Part shown: piece by piece, positions 19,916 to 31,901 of the stretch
How positions within the stretch are numbered: position 1 is the first letter of the stretch
Layout of the letters: each line of letters opens with the position of its first letter
Source of the DNA: Candidatus Poribacteria bacterium
GTDB taxonomy: Bacteria > Poribacteria > WGA-4E > PCPOR2b
DNA: 64,000 bases
Reading direction: 5' to 3'
NCBI GenBank assembly: GCA_965218095.1
Contig: OZ244587.1
Coordinates: forward strand, 320,001-384,000
Notes under the pieces: generated by a model
The model's input: the letters and a program-made list of their open reading frames with translations, nothing else
What the model was told of the DNA's origin: nothing
The model's database searches: none
Program-made: the position numbers and the translations under genes

Positions 19916-19946
19916 AAAAAGAGCCCCATGCATGATGCACAGGGCT
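19916..19946 (-). terminator. Rho-independent terminator, identical copy at 26758-26788
   Basis: AGCCCTGTGCAT..ATGCATGGGGCT hairpin followed by CTTTTT on minus strand, just after the CTD gene stop. Confidence 0.8.
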
Positions 19947-19968
19947 AAGACGCTGACAGAATAGAACA

Positions 19969-21041
19969 CTACTTCAGAATGATTAGCTTCTTCGTCGCGG
20001 CAAAGTCCCCAGCTTGCAGGTGGTAGAAATAGATTCCGCTGGAAACCGGCTCACCTGTGTCATTGCGACCATCCCAGTAAATCGCCTGCTCCTTGGAATC
20101 ATACACAGTGGCAGGCTGATGTCCGACTTTGAACGTGCGGACAACCTGACCCATCAGGTCAGAGATGGTCAACGTGACTGAAGCATCTTCTGCCAACCGA
20201 TACGGAATCTACGTCTCGGGATTGAAAGGATTGGGGAAGTTTTGAAGCAGCGCCGTCCGTTTGACCTGACCTAACGTGGTTGCCGTCAATGCAGACAACT
20301 CGACAGCAAGGGCAAGATCACCGGTCGCATCATAGACATAGGCTGAGCCGGCAGCATCATCGTCCAAAGTCGTCCCGATGATGGCGGAGTTTCTGCTGAT
20401 AGAGACGGAACCGCCGAACCTGTCCCCTGCCGCCGCGTTGCTGGCAGTTACCTTTGCCCTCTCAATCCAGGATGTGCCGCTGCGTAAAAAGGAATAGGCT
20501 GCGCCGGAATTGCTTCCGTTCTCATCGTGCCGATAGGCTCCGACGAGGGCGGCAATGTTTCCGCTGCTGCCGGTGATGGATACGGAAATTCCGAAGTCGT
20601 CACCTTTGCCGCATCACTGGCAGTGAGCTTTGCCTGCTCTTTCCAACTACTCCCGCTACGCGCGAAGACATACGCCGAGCCGACGTCCGGACGTCCAGCG
20701 TCATCATCATCTTGAGGCATCCCGGCGATGACAGTGTCCCCGCTGATGGCGACGGAACGGCCGTAGAAGTCACCTCCCTCTCCATCCTTGGTAGTGAGCT
20801 TCGCCTGCTCGGTCCAAATCCCCTCACTGCACACAAAGATATAGGCCGAACCGGACCGATCTCCGTCATCATCGTTACCCGGCGCCCCGACGATGGCATA
20901 GTCCCCGCTGATGGAGACCGAAGTGCTGAAGTTGTCATCTGCTGCCTTGTCGCCGGCGGTCAGTTTGACCTCCTCGGCGTGGGTTGTGGTTGCTTGGCAA
21001 ATCAGCAACATAGCAAGAAACAACATCAATAGCTTTTTCAT
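19969..21041 (-). pseudogene. Secreted FG-GAP-repeat protein with FlgD-Ig/T9SS-like CTD, pseudogene
   Basis: Signal peptide, SVSISGDYAIVGA repeats, QNFPNPFNPET*IPY (TAG 20209 at conserved Trp), frameshift near 20600, ends KKLIILK. Confidence 0.85.
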
Positions 21042-24809: not shown

Positions 24810-26747
24810 CTACCTTGAGCTGCCAAAGAAGATACGCATATGGATAATGTCGCCGACAATCGTCCAGAAACCTCCAACCATATACCCTCCCAAAATCAAC
24901 TCAAGAAAGAACGGCCGTGCTTGTCGGTGCAGCTTGAGCCCGCCGTATTTGAGGACAACCCACTTGGCGATAAAGCCGATAAAAACAGAGAACCAGAAGA
25001 TGTTGATGTCGTGACTATTTGAAATGGCATACCCTACCGGGTGAAACGGAAACCATAGAAATAGCCTTCGCATGACAGTGAAGAAGAGGACAACCACAAA
25101 GCCAACACCTACAGCCCCTGCCCCGGTATAGTCAAATTCAGACGGATGAAGCATCCAGTTCTGCAAGCGAATATACCCGGCGCTTGCAAACCGCTCAAGA
25201 GAGCTGCCTCCGGAGTCGAAAGCGATATGCAAATAGACCCAGAAGAAGCTGACCATTCCTATAATCAAAGCGACGGTCATCGCAAAAACTAACCCACCAG
25301 TGCCTTTTCTCATTCGATTGGCCAGGGCGAACCCTTCGATTTGATGGGGCATCGGGTGAGCGCGATAGGTAAAGTTAAAGAAATTGAGCATCGTCAGCAC
25401 TGTCAAGTTCTGGGCGCCGAAACGACGAGAACCCAAAATATCGGGTAGCACCTGGTCGGGGCCGGTAAAAACAAAATCGTGAAACGGGGCACCGAATTCG
25501 GCTCGAATTCGCGTCACGCCAAGCGAGACAAGATAATAGAGCAGAAAAAAGGTGATACTAATCCAAACAGCGAGTCCCGCCTTCTAGAGAAAAAACGTCA
25601 AAAAGCAGATACCTCCAACGGTGCCGATGAACGCGGTTTTATAGCGCATCGGTTCATGAGAATCGTCCAGTATACTGCCGCCTAGCATCCTCTTAAAAAT
25701 CGCGGTGAGATGTCTCCGGTTTGACCAGAGCGCTACCGATACGATGCCCAGCAGCGCACCAAACGATTGCTGAATCTGAACAATGGAATAAGAGCCCGCA
25801 ACGAACTGAAACCCCATTGTCACGACAAGCATTTTCTGAATCTTCCAAAACCAATAGAAAATCCAGCAAGAAAAAGACATCTCTAACGGCATAAAGAACG
25901 ACAGCCCAACCATCGGGAGGATAATCCCAGTCGGTATCCCTCCTATCGCGTTCCATGGACTAGATGTGAAGTAGGCGCCCAGGTTATGATAGTAAGGGAT
26001 CCACTTAATGGATGGGATAGTCGGAAAAATCCAACCCAAACCATTGATCAGCGCAACCCCACCTGAAATGCCAACCCCAATCCACAATCCCCTATTCTTG
26101 AAGATTGCCAGCGTCGAATCTGTCATCTCCAAAGGGAGTTGAATAATCGGATAGGATAGCTTTTCGTTTTCAACCCATGCCCTTCTGACAATCACATTGA
26201 TACAAATCATCACAAAGACGAGTACCACGACGAAAGCAGACCACCACAGACAGGGCGCCAGCCAACTGTTAATATGTTTGTCGATGTAGAGGGTTGACTC
26301 CCCCTTATAATATTCATCCAGTACATGTTTGTCGCTCACCGAAAGCCATGACGGGATATGTCGCCAGAACAACTCTCTCCACTCATTTTCGGGTGTGGCG
26401 TGGCGGAAGGGGACCTCCATGATGGTCGTCAGGGTTTGCATCATCTGGAACGATTGAATCGCAGAGGTTAAGCTTAACATAACATAGACGGTTATCAATT
26501 CTCCCTGAGTCAGGGCAAGCTGGGGCGCGAATTTCCTCAAAGGGATGTTGAGAAGCAGGAGGACACCAATAATGAAGATAACATTAAAGAAAGGGGATAT
26601 AATTGTGGGAACGGATTGATACTGGTAGGGCTGTCGAGAAATGACCAGCCAATGGGCATCGATGGGGATTAAAATCAGCCCCAGCCATACCGCGCGCGCG
26701 GAAACGACTGATGGCAGAGAAACATCCGATGAGCGTTTTGGGTTCAT
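24810..26747 (-). pseudogene. DUF6785/DUF6784-type membrane protein (putative peptide transporter) with in-frame amber stop
   Basis: WVENEKLSYPI, TRIRAEFGAP, WFPFHPVGY; ORFs 25584-26771 and 24810-25517 are in the same frame across TAG 25584. Confidence 0.8.
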
Positions 26748-27637
26748 ATCTTCCGACAAAAAGAGCCCCATGCATGATGCACAGGGCTAAGACGCTGACA
26801 GAATAGAACACTACTTATAGTTTGTATCAAATGACCCCATGAGCTAAACTAAAAGGAGATGGTATTGCCATCAACTACAATCCACTCATGGAGGTCAATA
26901 TGAAACCACAAAGCAATACAGCCTACGGTATCAACCGTCTACAATCAAAGACCGCAAGGGCAGCCATCATTCAGAAGATTTCATCAGACTTTAATCTAAT
27001 GCCACTGATTGCCGAAGCCTACTATAAACAGATTGCTTCCTACTTTGCTCAACATGCCGAAATTGAACTCACGTCAGGCCAAATCTGCTATGAGGCAGTC
27101 GCAGCCGATGAACCGGCAGGCAAACATATCGCGTTAGCGAAAAAAGTCTCATGTCAACTCACTCTCAATGATGTCCAAACTGACCTTGAGATGTTAGCCG
27201 ATTATGGGCTTTCTGGACTCAGACGCCATCGAATTCTCCGATTAACCAAACAAGCCTATGACCAAGATGCCCTGCTCAGCTATGAAGATTTAGCGGTGCT
27301 ATTAACCACCAGTCCAGCGACCGTCAAGCGCGACATTCGACAGTTGAAACAGGACGGTTACTTTGTTATGACTCGCGGTGCCAAACATGACATGGGGCCT
27401 GGCATCTCTCATAAGACTCAGATTCTGGAATTGTACTTCAAAGGGTATCAGTTCACTGAAATTGAGCAAAAGACTAATCATACCCAACGAGCGGTCTGGC
27501 GATACTTGCGCGATTTCACACAGGTAGCAAGCCTCCATCATCAAGGCTTTCCAAAGGGACAGATACGGCTCATTACGCATCTATCGGACCGACTAATTCG
27601 GGAGTATCTCTTGCTATATGATGAGTACCAACTATAT

Positions 27638-28746
27638 GAGGGGTGTGCATAAATATAGTTGACATAATCAAGCCAAAAGGGTTTCCTATTGTTATCATAG
27701 CAAAAGGAGCCCCAATATGGTACAAAGACCAATGTTGGCTGATTATGTCACTCTTATTATGCAACTCTTTGAGCAGTTTATGCAACACCGTATTGACAAA
27801 CCAGGTGTCACACACGCAAAACCATTGACATATTCAACCACCTCGTTTATCATTTTCTTCATGTTGATGCAGTTTCACGGCATCTATGGCTTCAAAACGC
27901 AATGGCGGTGGCTAATCAATCACCCAGAAGTGTTACAAATGCTGGGGTGGCAACAGCCCCCTCATCGAACCACGATTGCACGTCGCTATAAGGCATTATA
28001 TGAAGTGATAGAGGTATTTGTATTGTTTATCGGTCAGTATGCCACTGACTTGTCCCAACAATTCAACTTGGCTCATCTGGTAGCCGACAAAAGTTTATTT
28101 AAGGCACGAGGACCCGTCTGGCATCAAACTGACCGCAAAGCAGGAAAAGCACCTAAACATCTACGCAACCTCGACACCGATGCCACGTGGAGCAAGAGTG
28201 GTTATCATGGCTGGGTCTATGGCTACGGACTTCACATTATCTGCACACAAGGTGCGTTCCCAACACTGATAACTGTGCACCGTGCGTCGGTCTCCGAAAG
28301 TTGGGCGATAGATGCTAAAGCGTCTGAGATTCTGACACAACTTTCACCGCAGACACTCACTGCCGATGATGCCTATACCCAAGCAGACCGTATCCGTCGT
28401 TGGGCGAAGGCACAAGTCGCTTTGATTACCCCGGCACTTAGATGGACAAAGGGACGGTTTGCCAAGGCGTATCATCGATTTATCAACCAACCCAAGCAGC
28501 GTCTCTGTTTAAGCAAACGTCGCAGTTCGGTTGAACCGTTGTTTGACTTGATTGCTAAAGTGATAGGCACCACTCCTCAACAGAAGCAGTTACCGGTCAA
28601 GGGGTTTTTCAATGTACGCTGTTGTTTAGCTATCGGGGTGTTATCAGTGCAAGTGGCTATGATTGCCAATGCCATATGGAAGTTACCTGCTCGCAATATC
28701 TCTCATATGGCGGCTGTTTTCCAATGAACTACTATGCACACCCCTC
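27638..28746 (+). mobile_element. IS element (DDE_Tnp_1-type) nested in DUF1670 gene A
   Basis: 14-bp TIR GAGGGGTGTGCATA/TATGCACACCCCTC; 8-bp target duplication AACTATAT at 27630 and 28747. Confidence 0.92.
27717..28727 (+). CDS. DDE transposase
   Basis: VADKS, DATWSKS..GWVYGYGLH, ADDAY, RSSVEPLF. Confidence 0.9.
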   Translation: MVQRPMLADYVTLIMQLFEQFMQHRIDKPGVTHAKPLTYSTTSFIIFFMLMQFHGIYGFKTQWRWLINHPEVLQMLGWQQPPHRTTIARRYKALYEVIEVFVLFIGQYATDLSQQFNLAHLVADKSLFKARGPVWHQTDRKAGKAPKHLRNLDTDATWSKSGYHGWVYGYGLHIICTQGAFPTLITVHRASVSESWAIDAKASEILTQLSPQTLTADDAYTQADRIRRWAKAQVALITPALRWTKGRFAKAYHRFINQPKQRLCLSKRRSSVEPLFDLIAKVIGTTPQQKQLPVKGFFNVRCCLAIGVLSVQVAMIANAIWKLPARNISHMAAVFQ

Positions 28747-28831
28747 AACTATATGATGAGTACCAACAAACACAACGAATGACTCAACTCCTTCACCCGG
28801 AACCGGTTGATGCGGAAAAGGGGAACCCCTC

Positions 28832-29724
28832 ATGAGTAAACCCTTGACTCGAACCGAAGTCAACGAGAAGAAATTCAGACGCCTCAATGATAAATCCCTG
28901 CAATAGCTACTAATTCATCGCTTTATCAATTCTTACGGTTATGACAAAGGAGAAGTCACGGCGGCTGTCATTGTTGATGACATTGTCAAAACCATTGAAG
29001 GCTATTTCTTGATTGCCCTCCCCCTTGAGAAACTCGCCACAGGAGACCAAATCCCTAATCAGCGAATGCTCAGTTATGGGCAATTGGTCTGGATGGCTGT
29101 GCCGATTGATGAATACCCACAAAAAGGGAAGTCAATCGTCAAAACCGCTATGAAGCTGGTTGTTCTGACCTACCTCGCTTCTGAGGATATTGAATCCTTT
29201 CGCAACGGTTTTACTTCCCGGCAACTCAGAATCAATTGATTAGTCCGATGGTGTTATCAAGCCTATGACCAAGGCGCATTATTGACCCAACTCGACCTAG
29301 CTGTGTTGCTCAATATCTGTGATGCCATCGTCAGCGACTATGTCAATGAGTGGCAAAAAAATAGTGGAAAACTCTTGCCCACCCGGGGCAATATCCATGA
29401 TTTATCGGGAGCGATTACCCACAAGAAAGAGATTGTTACCCTCTATCTCCAAGGGCATCTGCTGCCAAAACCAGCCACTCTAAAGAAGCGGTTGACCGGT
29501 ACATTCGCGATTATGAGTCCGTTAAGACGGTTCGTGCCGCTACGGAGGATATTGACAAAATCTCTCAGATTACCCGGCTCTCCAAACGCGTCATCTCTCA
29601 ATATCTTGACCTGATTCCTCAACATTCGCTTGATGACATGGACGCTAACTTAGCAACCGAATCAGAAAGCTGTAAAGATGCCAACACCCTGTTCCGTTCC
29701 GAACCTACAGGAGACCCCCAATGA
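28832..29724 (+). pseudogene. DUF1670-like protein B, pseudogene
   Basis: QAYDQGALLTQLDLAVLL, LPTRGNIHDLSGAITHK, KTSHSKEAVDRYIRD; stops at 28904 and 29237, frameshift near 29465. Confidence 0.82.
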
Positions 29725-29791
29725 TAAAATCGGACAAACGTTGCTTAGCGTTTTGCCCAACAAAACATCGTAATTTTACTTGAAGATTGGT

Positions 29792-29820
29792 TTGACACCC
29801 GCTATCTTTTTTGCTATACT
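29792..29820 (+). promoter_or_regulatory. Sigma-70 promoter inside the right end of the DUF1670 element
   Basis: TTGACA-17 nt-TATACT with extended -10 TG. Confidence 0.75.
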
Positions 29821-29825
29821 TCGTT

Positions 29826-29954
29826 ACGCTTATATCCAAGCGTATCCATTTCTCGAAGGAGATGCGAGTTCACCCAATCCAACCCGCTCATGGGTGATGG
29901 CTGGAAGGCAATAGACATCAGCATTCCAACCATCATCTGGTCATTTGATACTAT
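29826..29954 (+). ncRNA. Putative structured non-coding RNA of the DUF1670 element
   Basis: Downstream of consensus promoter; hairpins TACGCTT/AAGCGTA, CACCCA/TGGGTG and a 14/17 stem 29893-29937; no substantial ORF. Confidence 0.35.
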
Positions 29955-31053
29955 TTCAAGATGACCATCTTACGGGTTTCCTCGTAGTCGTTGGTCGTCA
30001 GTGTGTAGAAGTACACCCTAGCTGCGACCGGTTCCCTGTGTTCGTTGCGGCCATCCCAATATGCCGCCTTCGTCCGATAGGTGTAGAAGCCCGCCTTCTG
30101 ATGCCCCAGAGCAAATTGACGCACTAACGCGCCGTTGATGTCGTAGATCGAGATCTGCACATCGGTGTCGTTGGCGAGTTGGTAAGGCATCCACGTCTCC
30201 GGGTTGAACGGGTTAGGATAGTTCTGCAACAGCGCGGTTTCTGTCATGGTTGGTCGTTGCAAACGCGGCGTGATAGGCGTGATGTGCGACGACATATCCC
30301 ACAGCAGAATCGTTCCATCATTTGCTCCCGATGCGAGGAGGGTGCCGTCGGGCGAAAACGCCACAAACTTAACCTCATACCTATGCTCTTGTAGTGTGTT
30401 GATGTTTCGGCCGGTCGAAACCTCCCATAATTTGACCGTTCCATCACCATCCCCCGATGCGAGGACGGTGCCGTCGGGCGAAAATGCCACAGAATAGACT
30501 CCATCCGTATGCCTGTGTAGTGTCGCGAGATTTCGTCCCGTTTCTACATCCCACAGTTTGAGTTTCCCCTCTTCGGGGAAGTTACCCCTTGCCCCCGATG
30601 CGATTTTTGTGCCATTGATCGAAAACGCCACAGAGTAGACCGCACCCCTATGCCCTTGTAGTGTGGCGATGTTTTGTCCGGTCGAAACCTTCCACAGTTT
30701 GACCGTTTCATCATAAGACCCTGACGCGAGGACGGTGCCGTCGGGCGAAAACGCTACAGAGTTGCCCCCATCTGTATGCCCTTGGAGTGTAGCGATGTTT
30801 TGTCCGGTCGCAACGTCCCACAGTTTAACCCCTCCTGCTTCGCCGGACTTATCCCATGACGCCGATGCGAGTTTTGTGCCGTCGGGCGAGAACGCCATAG
30901 ACTCGACTATCCGCGCATGCCCTTGGAGTGTAGCGATGTTTCGTCCGGTCGAAACCTCCCACAGGTTGATTATTCCACCCTCTGCCCCCGACGCGAGAAT
31001 GATGCTGTCGGGCGAAAACACTATATCACGGGCCGACCCTTTATGCCCTTTTA

Positions 31054-31901
31054 GGTTCTGTTGACATTTGAGTATAAGGTTGTGGCATAATAGAAGAATG
31101 ACGCCAATAACCTTACCTGATGAACAATGGAATAAGATATACCGGTTTCTTCTTAGCTGTCCCACCATCTATGTTGGCGACGAAGCTGCTACACGCCGCT
31201 TCGTCGAAGCAGTTCTGTGGGTGACTCGTAGTGGCGCTCAATGGAGACTTCTACCAGACACCTATGGCAAATGGAACACCCGCTACAAGCGGTTTGCTCG
31301 ATGGTGCGACAAAGGTATCTTCACACAGATGCACCACCACTTCGCCTCTGACCCCGATATCGAGTCGCTTATTGTGGACAGTACCATCTGCCGCGCTCAC
31401 CCGTCTGCGGCGGGCGCCTTAAAAAGCTGGCGCCTTAAAAAAAAGGGTGGCACTGAAAACCAAGCATTAGGTCGCTCTCGGGGCGGTTTCAGTACAAAAA
31501 ATCACATCACAGTTGACGGACTAGGCAATCCCCTAAGAATTCATCTGACACCCGGTCAGAGACATGACATAACTGAGGCGGAAGGGTTGATAATCGGATA
31601 TAACAGTGAATATGTGATTGGAGACAAGGGGTACGATTCGGACGCTTTTATCGCCGTTATTGAGGCGAATGGAGCAATTGCGGTGATACCGCCAAAAAGT
31701 CATCGTGTTGACCAAAGAACGTATGACAAACACTTATACAAAGAGAGACATCGGGTTGAATGTTTCATCAACAAGATAAAATGGTATCGTCGTATCTTCT
31801 CTCGGTTTGTCTCTCGGTTTGAGAAGCTAGCTGTCCGTTATTTTGGATTTCTCAGCTTTGTCGCCACTCTTATATGGCTCCGTTGAAATGTCAACAGAAC
31901 C
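31054..31901 (+). mobile_element. IS5-family element
   Basis: TIR GGTTCTGTTGACATTT/AAATGTCAACAGAACC, TA duplication; removal restores IATLKGHK of the WD40 gene. Confidence 0.93.
31098..31886 (+). CDS. IS5-family transposase (two ORFs fused in frame)
   Basis: RSGAQWRLLP, VDST, GRSRGGFSTK, GDKGYD, YKERHRVE. Confidence 0.88.
   Translation: MTPITLPDEQWNKIYRFLLSCPTIYVGDEAATRRFVEAVLWVTRSGAQWRLLPDTYGKWNTRYKRFARWCDKGIFTQMHHHFASDPDIESLIVDSTICRAHPSAAGALKSWRLKKKGGTENQALGRSRGGFSTKNHITVDGLGNPLRIHLTPGQRHDITEAEGLIIGYNSEYVIGDKGYDSDAFIAVIEANGAIAVIPPKSHRVDQRTYDKHLYKERHRVECFINKIKWYRRIFSRFVSRFEKLAVRYFGFLSFVATLIWLR

Follow-up and report, generated by a model that had tools for sequence, protein, structure and literature searches.

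A site- and orientation-specific mobile element family in Poribacteria whose only conserved genes encode two DUF1670 proteins

We analysed a 64,000-nt stretch of the genome of a Candidatus Poribacteria bacterium (contig OZ244587.1, positions 320,001 to 384,000; we call this whole stretch the window). At the very end of one of its genes lies a copy of a mobile element, and this element belongs to a discrete family that is specific for both its target site and its orientation. The layout of the family is a left end, two genes (A and B) for proteins with the domain of unknown function DUF1670 (PF07900), a non-coding tail of about 140-290 nt that holds a promoter and two hairpins, and a right end. 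An earlier reading of this DNA by a model, from the sequence alone, had proposed a mobile element with a DUF1670 pair as its only conserved genes, and the elements of relatives, with their ends and TT flanks, support this.

The outermost 7 nt of the element at its left end are ATAGTTT (26817-26823). These are followed by GTATCAAATGACC at 26824-26836, whose perfect complement lies at 29939-29951, just before the terminal TAT (29952-29954). The sequence-only reading had described a perfect 13-bp pair of inverted repeats that begins 7 nt inside the left end and stops 3 nt inside the right end, with TT on both flanks. We re-located the repeats as well as both TTs, and in a repeat search the pair extends to 19 nt, 17 of which match (89%). 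It had also stated that removing the segment restores a gene end and its terminator, and this too can be reproduced: taking out the element and one TT gives AAG-TAG, as at an uninterrupted paralog of the target gene (19916-19980). This empty site has the same terminator, and its junction (...CACTACTTCAG...) contains a single TT, which is why the lysine codon and the stop come back when the element is removed together with one TT. The coordinates of all features are given in Table 1. The paralog (19969-20271, minus strand) has an in-frame stop (...NPET*IPY...) about 80 codons before its end and may be a pseudogene. Beside the displaced terminator lies a gene (25584-26771, minus strand) for a membrane protein of 395 amino acids with DUF6785 (3e-112).

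The window copy is dead or nearly so, as gene A is cut 18 codons short of its end by a nested insertion sequence (IS) and gene B is a pseudogene, with a TAG at 28904-28906, a TGA at 29237-29239 and a frameshift near 29461. The claim that the cargo is two coupled DUF1670 open reading frames is thus right in that the pair are the only conserved genes, but here B is not open and A is interrupted. Against PF07900, A scores 212.5 bits and the fragments of B score 28.4 and 91.4 bits (the cut-off is 25). A also matches HTH_11, HTH_DeoR and sigma-70 region 4, more weakly than DUF1670. The reading frames of A and B match only PF07900 and helix-turn-helix families; that the cargo has no recognisable recombinase motif had been claimed from the sequence. 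The nested IS (DDE_Tnp_1) has 39 full-length copies in the genome, which are 99.7-100% identical, and its usual duplication is 6-7 bp. Here, instead, a direct repeat of 19 nt lies on its two sides (27614-27632 and 28749-28767); the uninterrupted sister copy of the element has this repeat only once.

Table 1. Features of the element and its target in the window
Feature	Position	Strand	Remark
Element copy c1	26817-29954	+	3138 bp in all; 2003 bp once the nested IS and the 24-bp duplication that flanks it are subtracted
Left TT, duplicated target core	26815-26816	.	single TT in the empty paralog
Right TT, duplicated target core	29955-29956	.
Left subterminal inverted repeat	26824-26842	+	7 nt in from the end; kept in all listed elements of relatives
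Right subterminal inverted repeat	29933-29951	+	3 nt in from the end
DUF1670 gene A, first 249 codons	26888-27636	+	remainder (to 28835) lies past the nested IS; PF07900 at 6.5e-63
Nested DDE IS, 1111 bp	27637-28747	+	transposase at 27717-28727; a later event, outside the family
DUF1670 gene B, pseudogene	28832-29724	+	start overlaps the stop of gene A (ATGA)
Promoter-like site TTGACA-17-TATACT, TG before the second hexamer	29792-29820	+	points to the right end; 11/12 matches in c2
Structured 3' module: hairpin 1, linker, hairpin 2	29825-29954	+	87.1 bits with model R1
Target gene: WD40 protein with a C-terminal sorting domain of the type IX secretion system (T9SS) type	29951-31168	-	stop codon plus one base of the final codon lie within the right end of the element
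Displaced terminator hairpin and 3' tail of the target gene	26757-26814	-	same sequence as 19916-19968 behind the uninterrupted paralog

The target protein ends in ...RKMVILK-stop, and the sorting-domain families Por_Secre_tail (1.3e-6), FlgD_ig and CHU_C are recognised in its C-terminal 100 residues. Its stop codon (29951-29953) and the first base of its final lysine codon (29954) are the last four bases of the element. In other words, the right end of the element (CTAT) rebuilds the end of the host gene, and the host protein is unchanged. All four copies in this genome have ...YTAYTT on their left and, on their right, TT and the reverse complement of a gene end that encodes ...M(V/L)ILK-stop. 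Targets are plentiful, since 58 gene ends in the genome match a loose pattern of this site (46 of them with an open frame of 20 codons); among the 40 sites listed, most end in YFY...K-stop. Across 85 distinct insertions, TT is present on both sides in 84 (the exception, L067, lacks the left TT), the consensus of the left flank is Y-T-A-Y-T-T, and the right flank shows the three-base rhythm of the hydrophobic codons of T9SS tails.

There is a second type of target. In three of the relatives (G032, G023 and G021), elements sit in the middle of a repeated palindrome, again between runs of T, and not in a T9SS-tail gene end. The palindrome is GAAACCGAGTTTTTT ... TTCTTCAAAACTCGGTTTC (L052-L055 in G032, L024 in G023 and L035 in G021), and the 3' module of these elements is nearly unchanged. 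We also observed one chromosomal locus (L061, in G051), just left of the element, where a remnant of a right end is followed by TT and then by a complete left end, in head-to-tail order; together with the TT, this right end mimics the preferred CTAYTT target. As for the surroundings of the target gene in the window, a reading frame for 272 amino acids that resembles another transposase (31068-31886) lies past it, between pieces of WD40-repeat genes, and the array of WD40/T9SS-tail genes in this region seems heavily fragmented by insertion sequences.

The genome of the window is a single contig of 6.35 Mb. A BLAST search of it with the 2003-bp copy found four copies and one solo right end of 26 nt, and nothing else, so no other repeats with these ends. 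The four copies are at least 99.7% identical and lie at four T9SS-tail gene ends. They are the window copy (c1), an uninterrupted copy of 2003 bp (c2), one with a 1995-bp insertion after position 35 and one with an internal replacement; the other three differ from c2 at 2, 2 and 4 positions. A is intact (270 amino acids) in copies c2 and c3. Gene B carries identical lesions, three in number, in every copy, so the copies descend from an element whose B was already defective. The genome has no PF07900 genes besides A and B.

The c2 site gave moderate evidence of a presence/absence polymorphism. Contigs from two DNA runs, which come from different studies, join the flanks of c2 and skip 2005 nt, that is, the element plus one TT. 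The depth of these contigs is 27.8 and 10.3, compared with flank depths of 15-52. In one of the runs (X4) there is, moreover, a miniature in which 33 other letters separate the ends.

Across the phylum, 46 of 176 genomes contain PF07900 proteins, mostly as multi-copy tandem pairs. In four of these (G032, G051, G092 and G161; 20 copies), the copies within a genome are 95-100% identical over blocks of 1990-2308 bp, although in G161 and G092 the aligned blocks extend beyond the element end into similar flanks; from end to end, the elements in these four genomes are 1952-2013 bp long. Both conserved ends were present, 1895-2028 bp apart, at 27 of the 29 relative loci that were opened in a first round. 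The remaining two have a left end only, and one of them is a short contig.

Intact relatives do not carry a third gene for a transposase. In 35 of the 37 distinct elements (1.9-2.03 kb), there is an open A (269-294 amino acids), an open B (282-301 amino acids) and no further gene; the two exceptions are the copy in the window's own genome and L050. The ATG of B overlaps the stop of A in all 35 intact elements. DUF1670 pairs elsewhere likewise come with the ends, the TT flanks and empty sites. The two observations that the sequence-only reading had named as speaking against its proposal are therefore not borne out. One element (L045) has changed both of its repeats in a matching way, to GTATCATATGCCC and GGGCATATGATAC. 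The median ratio of nonsynonymous to synonymous substitution rates is 0.10 for A and 0.09 for B, which indicates strong purifying selection. An Ignavibacteria metagenome-assembled genome (MAG) also contains an A+B element with related ends, whose flanks are ...TTACTT and TT plus a T9SS-tail gene end, and another MAG has three contigs of 2.1-2.3 kb with one A/B pair each. Database searches for DUF1670 gave 817 close proteins (in 90% clusters), many of them on contigs about 2 kb long; with E up to 0.001, 1227 representative clusters were counted.

Between gene B and the right end lies a non-coding tail, of 230 nt here and 142-293 nt in relatives. Its promoter-like site has its hexamers at 29792-29797 and 29815-29820, about 134 nt from the right end, and the pattern (TTGAC/GCA, 17 nt, TGnTATACT) is kept in 28 of 28 aligned elements. 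Almost all variants of the 3' module that follows fold into two hairpins, and hairpin 2 is enclosed by the outer and the inner part of the right repeat. RNAalifold did not find hairpin 2 in plain MAFFT alignments. We built a covariance model (R1) because two subtypes that are shifted by one column had hidden this hairpin. R1 was built on 14 sequences and gave 43 matches in 47 sources. In the alignment of these 43 sequences, 83.6% of the cells pair, versus 30-46% if the partners are slid along, and 19 of 30 pairs change on both sides, versus 4-9 if slid; none of 500 shuffles reached the observed values. This alignment was fitted to the model, so the support is somewhat overstated. The module may act as an RNA, as a structure of single-stranded DNA or as a DNA site for protein binding.

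What could the two proteins do? The AlphaFold model of A is confident (predicted local distance difference test score, pLDDT, of 89). In a wide structural search with this predicted model, residues 101-170 matched winged-helix proteins (NiaR, Z 6.6; BirA, Z 5.7) and residues 173-260 matched TrpR, Mu Mor/C and DeoR-type proteins (Z up to 6.7). Foldseek with the model of A gave no match at E up to 0.001. When folded alone (pLDDT 83), the N-terminal 110 residues form three helices and a long two-stranded arm, and the loop between the two strands contains the conserved, proline-containing EPAGK. The top Foldseek rows for this part are weak, but almost all of them are HU/IHF (E 0.08-0.6, probability at most 0.91), and the VIA Z was at most 4.4. 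Judging from these predicted models, every recognisable part of A is a DNA-binding or DNA-bending module.

Neither A nor B has a Pfam match to a DDE family and no DDE fold is among the structural matches listed, though a missing match is not proof of absence. Pfam, NCBIfam and fold comparisons did not find a serine or tyrosine recombinase domain in A or B. The NCBIfam scan gave only sub-threshold rows for helix-turn-helix families, and a search of a protein atlas gave only leads of the helix-turn-helix type (0.76-0.80, below the trustworthy level). Natural fusions of two DUF1670 units (about 500-660 amino acids) or of three or more (930-950 amino acids) exist, and the eight that we scanned all lack any other kind of domain. 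A prediction of the complex of A and B, run without controls, scored 0.04, which decides neither for nor against binding.

Several polar residues of A are strongly conserved. R163 (in the numbering of A) is the sole invariant residue among 83 distant homologs, at about 30% identity, and G164, G170, H175, H198 and Y206 are conserved in at least 90% of them. In the closer alignment of 12 sequences, and only there, D168, S174 and R205 are also invariant and K176 is nearly so. The conserved polar residues have counterparts in B (PTRG, HD, THK, KHS and RY), and the conserved R-Y pair lies in the second helix-turn-helix of A. The conserved polar residues speak against a purely structural role of the protein, and R163, H175, H198 and Y206 are candidate catalytic residues.

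We propose that A and B bind and bend the ends of the element and also carry out the chemistry; we put the probability of this at roughly 45%. As the insertions show, the element enters at a TT in the last codon of T9SS-tail genes, after which TT flanks both of its ends. A heteromer of A and B would sit on the subterminal repeats and bend them, and the two proteins themselves would cut and rejoin the DNA at the 2-nt core, which would make them a new kind of recombinase. Movement is probably by way of an excised circle, in which case the outward promoter may serve to read into A and B. A more specific version, which we hold to be rather doubtful, is that A and B make up a new recombinase class assembled from HU/IHF-like and helix-turn-helix modules. 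They would act as A2B2 on the subterminal repeats and exchange strands at the TT core. The nucleophile would lie on the DNA-binding helix (R205-Y206) or in the linker T-R-G...S/T-H-K, maybe with help from a structured 3' RNA; the whole would be an analogue of the IS1111 seekRNA system with unrelated proteins. The placement of R205-Y206 on a DNA-binding helix can be likened to the CAP domains of type II topoisomerases.

Several observations count against a catalytic role for A and B. The sequence-only reading had suggested that the pair is a two-subunit recombinase, and our data leave this unsupported, as B is broken in all four copies and no catalytic fold was recognised. There are three possibilities for the lineage with the broken B: it spread after the break, it was mobilised in trans, or gene conversion made its copies alike. 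We take the broken B in all four copies to argue that B is not strictly needed in cis, and it is silent on whether A suffices. A search for catalytic folds with the model of A recognised none: it returned only winged-helix, helix-turn-helix and weak HU/IHF-like matches, in lists dominated by helix-turn-helix proteins, which do not exclude other families. If the predicted model is right, then a protein built entirely from DNA-binding parts fits an accessory factor as well as an enzyme. The evidence for movement has its limits too: the empty-site contigs have only 34 nt on their shorter side and were matched at 90% likeness, in a repeated gene family, and no back-joining (circle) joint is listed among the assembled contigs that we compared. 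Finally, several copies of a derivative that carries another gene (Transposase_31, see below) are found in G050, a genome without a PF07900 match; these may be old, as they are 79-88% alike.

The all-DNA-binding build of A suggests another explanation: A and B might only recognise the site and bend the DNA, like IHF/Xis or an adaptor of the TnsD type, while a host enzyme (a tyrosine recombinase of the Xer type, a topoisomerase, or a nuclease and ligase) does the chemistry. The weak HU/IHF likeness of the N-terminal part, with its conserved EPAGK loop, would fit this, as would the pairing of two paralogs, which recalls IHF alpha and beta, and the fact that B is dispensable or lost in this genome. 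We nevertheless consider it unlikely. The enzyme would have to be common to Poribacteria, Ignavibacteria and other phyla, and we identified no candidate host gene in this analysis. Elements that exploit Xer integrate at dif, once per chromosome, whereas this element is found at many gene ends. Also, the overlap of tyrosine recombinases is 6-8 nt, which a 2-nt core does not fit.

A different enzyme encoded by an element might instead move these ends in trans, with the DUF1670 pair as regulatory cargo. One candidate is a YhgA/Rpn-like protein, Transposase_31; another would be an IS3-type transposase. In one genome (G155), a 1370-bp element with the same ends and the same target (L208, 1754-3124) carries a Transposase_31 gene in reverse (2e-29). 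We opened eight further loci of the Transposase_31 type in G050, G054 and G046, among them L220, L227, L230, L232 and L234 (G050), L222 (G054) and L224 (G046). In these, a left end (seen in 6 of the 8) is followed by the Transposase_31 gene in reverse orientation, which some of the loci have lost, then by a remnant of gene B and the right end; they are 765-1579 bp long. The ends also travel without DUF1670 genes. The 3' module, as detected with R1, is in 92 of 151 genomes, compared with 46 of 176 for PF07900. We opened 17 of the extra R1 sites: 4 have a left end nearby, namely the 1370-bp element of G155 and three gene-less derivatives, and 13 are right-end pieces of about 90-100 nt that lie beside T9SS-tail gene ends and have no left end within about 3.1 kb. 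The gene-less derivatives, with the same ends, are 206 bp (L204), 524 bp (L202) and 537 bp (L199) long. In these miniatures about 110 nt remain from the left end and about 95 nt from the right; the longer ones also contain an unrelated repeat inside, made of CGCGAGTGAAACTCGCTCCTACAGGGAT units.

The wide spread of R1 and of right-end pieces is what movement in trans might leave behind, but we think that this explanation is quite improbable. Part of gene B is still present in the Transposase_31 derivatives, which therefore stem from A+B elements. As for IS3, no such gene was seen at the 30 extra R1 sites that we opened, and looking up the sequence of the 3' module gave no hit. Their copies are 79-88% alike in a genome without DUF1670, versus 95-100% in genomes with A+B elements. 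In the window's genome, Transposase_31 exists only as three fragments (open frames of 79-143 amino acids), and we did not find an autonomous partner there with the same ends and a known transposase; yet four near-identical copies are present, with neither an intact Transposase_31 nor an IS110 recombinase. Strong purifying selection on A and B, inside the element and across phyla, is also hard to reconcile with mere cargo.

It is about as improbable, in our view, that the key component is the 3' RNA, as a guide that resembles a seekRNA or bridge RNA or as a ribozyme, with the DUF1670 proteins as its partners. The near-consensus promoter that is kept ahead of about 128 nt with two hairpins, and the covariation of those hairpins, speak for an RNA. 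Several features agree with the description of IS1111 in PMC11187229: the module comes after the genes, the repeats are subterminal, and target and orientation are strict. On the other hand, complementarity of at least 7 nt between the RNA and the target gave no consistent match across the insertion point, and the matches were at scattered positions. Some match of at least 7 nt between the RNA and the target is present for 36 of 82 elements, as compared to a mean of 22.7 with random genome windows, and shorter guides are possible. Elements that target palindromes (G032 and G023) carry nearly the same RNA as those at T9SS tails. An Rfam scan of 26700-30100 matched no family (one chance row, E 0.52), and the covariation comes from an alignment that was fitted to its model. 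The hairpins could also act as DNA. In contigs from RNA libraries the depth of the element is 6-9, like that of its flank, and such contigs cannot tell RNA from carry-over of DNA. A role for the 3' RNA can be combined with A and B as the enzyme or with a host enzyme. Lastly, we reject an IS110 recombinase acting in trans in this genome, because PF01548 and PF02371 have 0 matches in its 6.35 Mb while controls were matched.

To our knowledge, all well-studied insertion sequences use DDE, DEDD, HUH, serine or tyrosine enzymes. Here we have a compact, widespread and multi-copy element whose strictly conserved genes match none of these five types, and DUF1670 or PF07900 is not mentioned in the 8.4 million papers and preprints that we searched; a literature search on insertion sequences of Poribacteria listed only unrelated papers. 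If the DUF1670 proteins are the enzyme, then they would be a new recombinase class with a very precise, gene-sparing target rule and a 2-nt core, and genome engineering might profit from it. Should they only recruit an enzyme of the host, this would be a mode of movement new to insertion sequences. In both cases a domain that has long lacked a function would gain one, and the family accounts for part of the repeat load in the genomes of sponge symbionts.

How does the element compare with known systems? Tn7 and other "safe-site" elements land at a conserved gene end, in one orientation, without damage to the gene product. The element is similar to Tn7 at attTn7 (the TnsD pathway) in that it lands at the very end of a gene, in one orientation, and spares the product. 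It differs in that it is just 2 kb with two small genes, has no machinery of the TnsABC type and makes no 5-bp duplication, and in that its target is a multi-copy gene family instead of a single site. IS630 and Tc1-mariner elements have a 2-bp duplication and a bipartite helix-turn-helix region for DNA binding, and the element shares both, but it duplicates TT rather than TA, its repeats are subterminal and no DDE domain was found. Like the elements that exploit XerCD (integrative mobile elements exploiting Xer, or IMEX) and like IHF/Xis systems, it has proteins that look purely DNA-binding, and a host enzyme might be borrowed. In contrast to IMEX, it lies at many gene-end sites and not at dif, has a 2-nt core, and is multi-copy with gene-less derivatives, as insertion sequences are.

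The closest likeness in layout is to the IS1111 group of the IS110 family. According to PMC11187229, the repeats of IS1111 elements are subterminal, a seekRNA comes from a non-coding region that follows the gene, targets are specific, and circles form in which the ends abut. Our element has subterminal repeats, a long and structured tail preceded by a promoter, a single orientation, a specific target (palindromes in some relatives) and a 2-nt core. The sequence-only reading had called the geometry of the ends IS1111-like, and the layout does run parallel to IS1111, but the distances of "7 and 3 nt" that it gave for that group are not met with in the consulted part of PMC11187229. The element and its whole genome lack a DEDD/Transposase_20 recombinase, and its proteins are two DUF1670 helix-turn-helix proteins. 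No consistent complementarity of at least 7 nt between its putative RNA and its target was found, and its promoter is complete and internal instead of being formed at a joined end. Because the defining DEDD recombinase is absent, the element is not a member of IS110/IS1111. We rate the family as lying outside every described class of transposase, and it may be moved by an enzyme of a new type.

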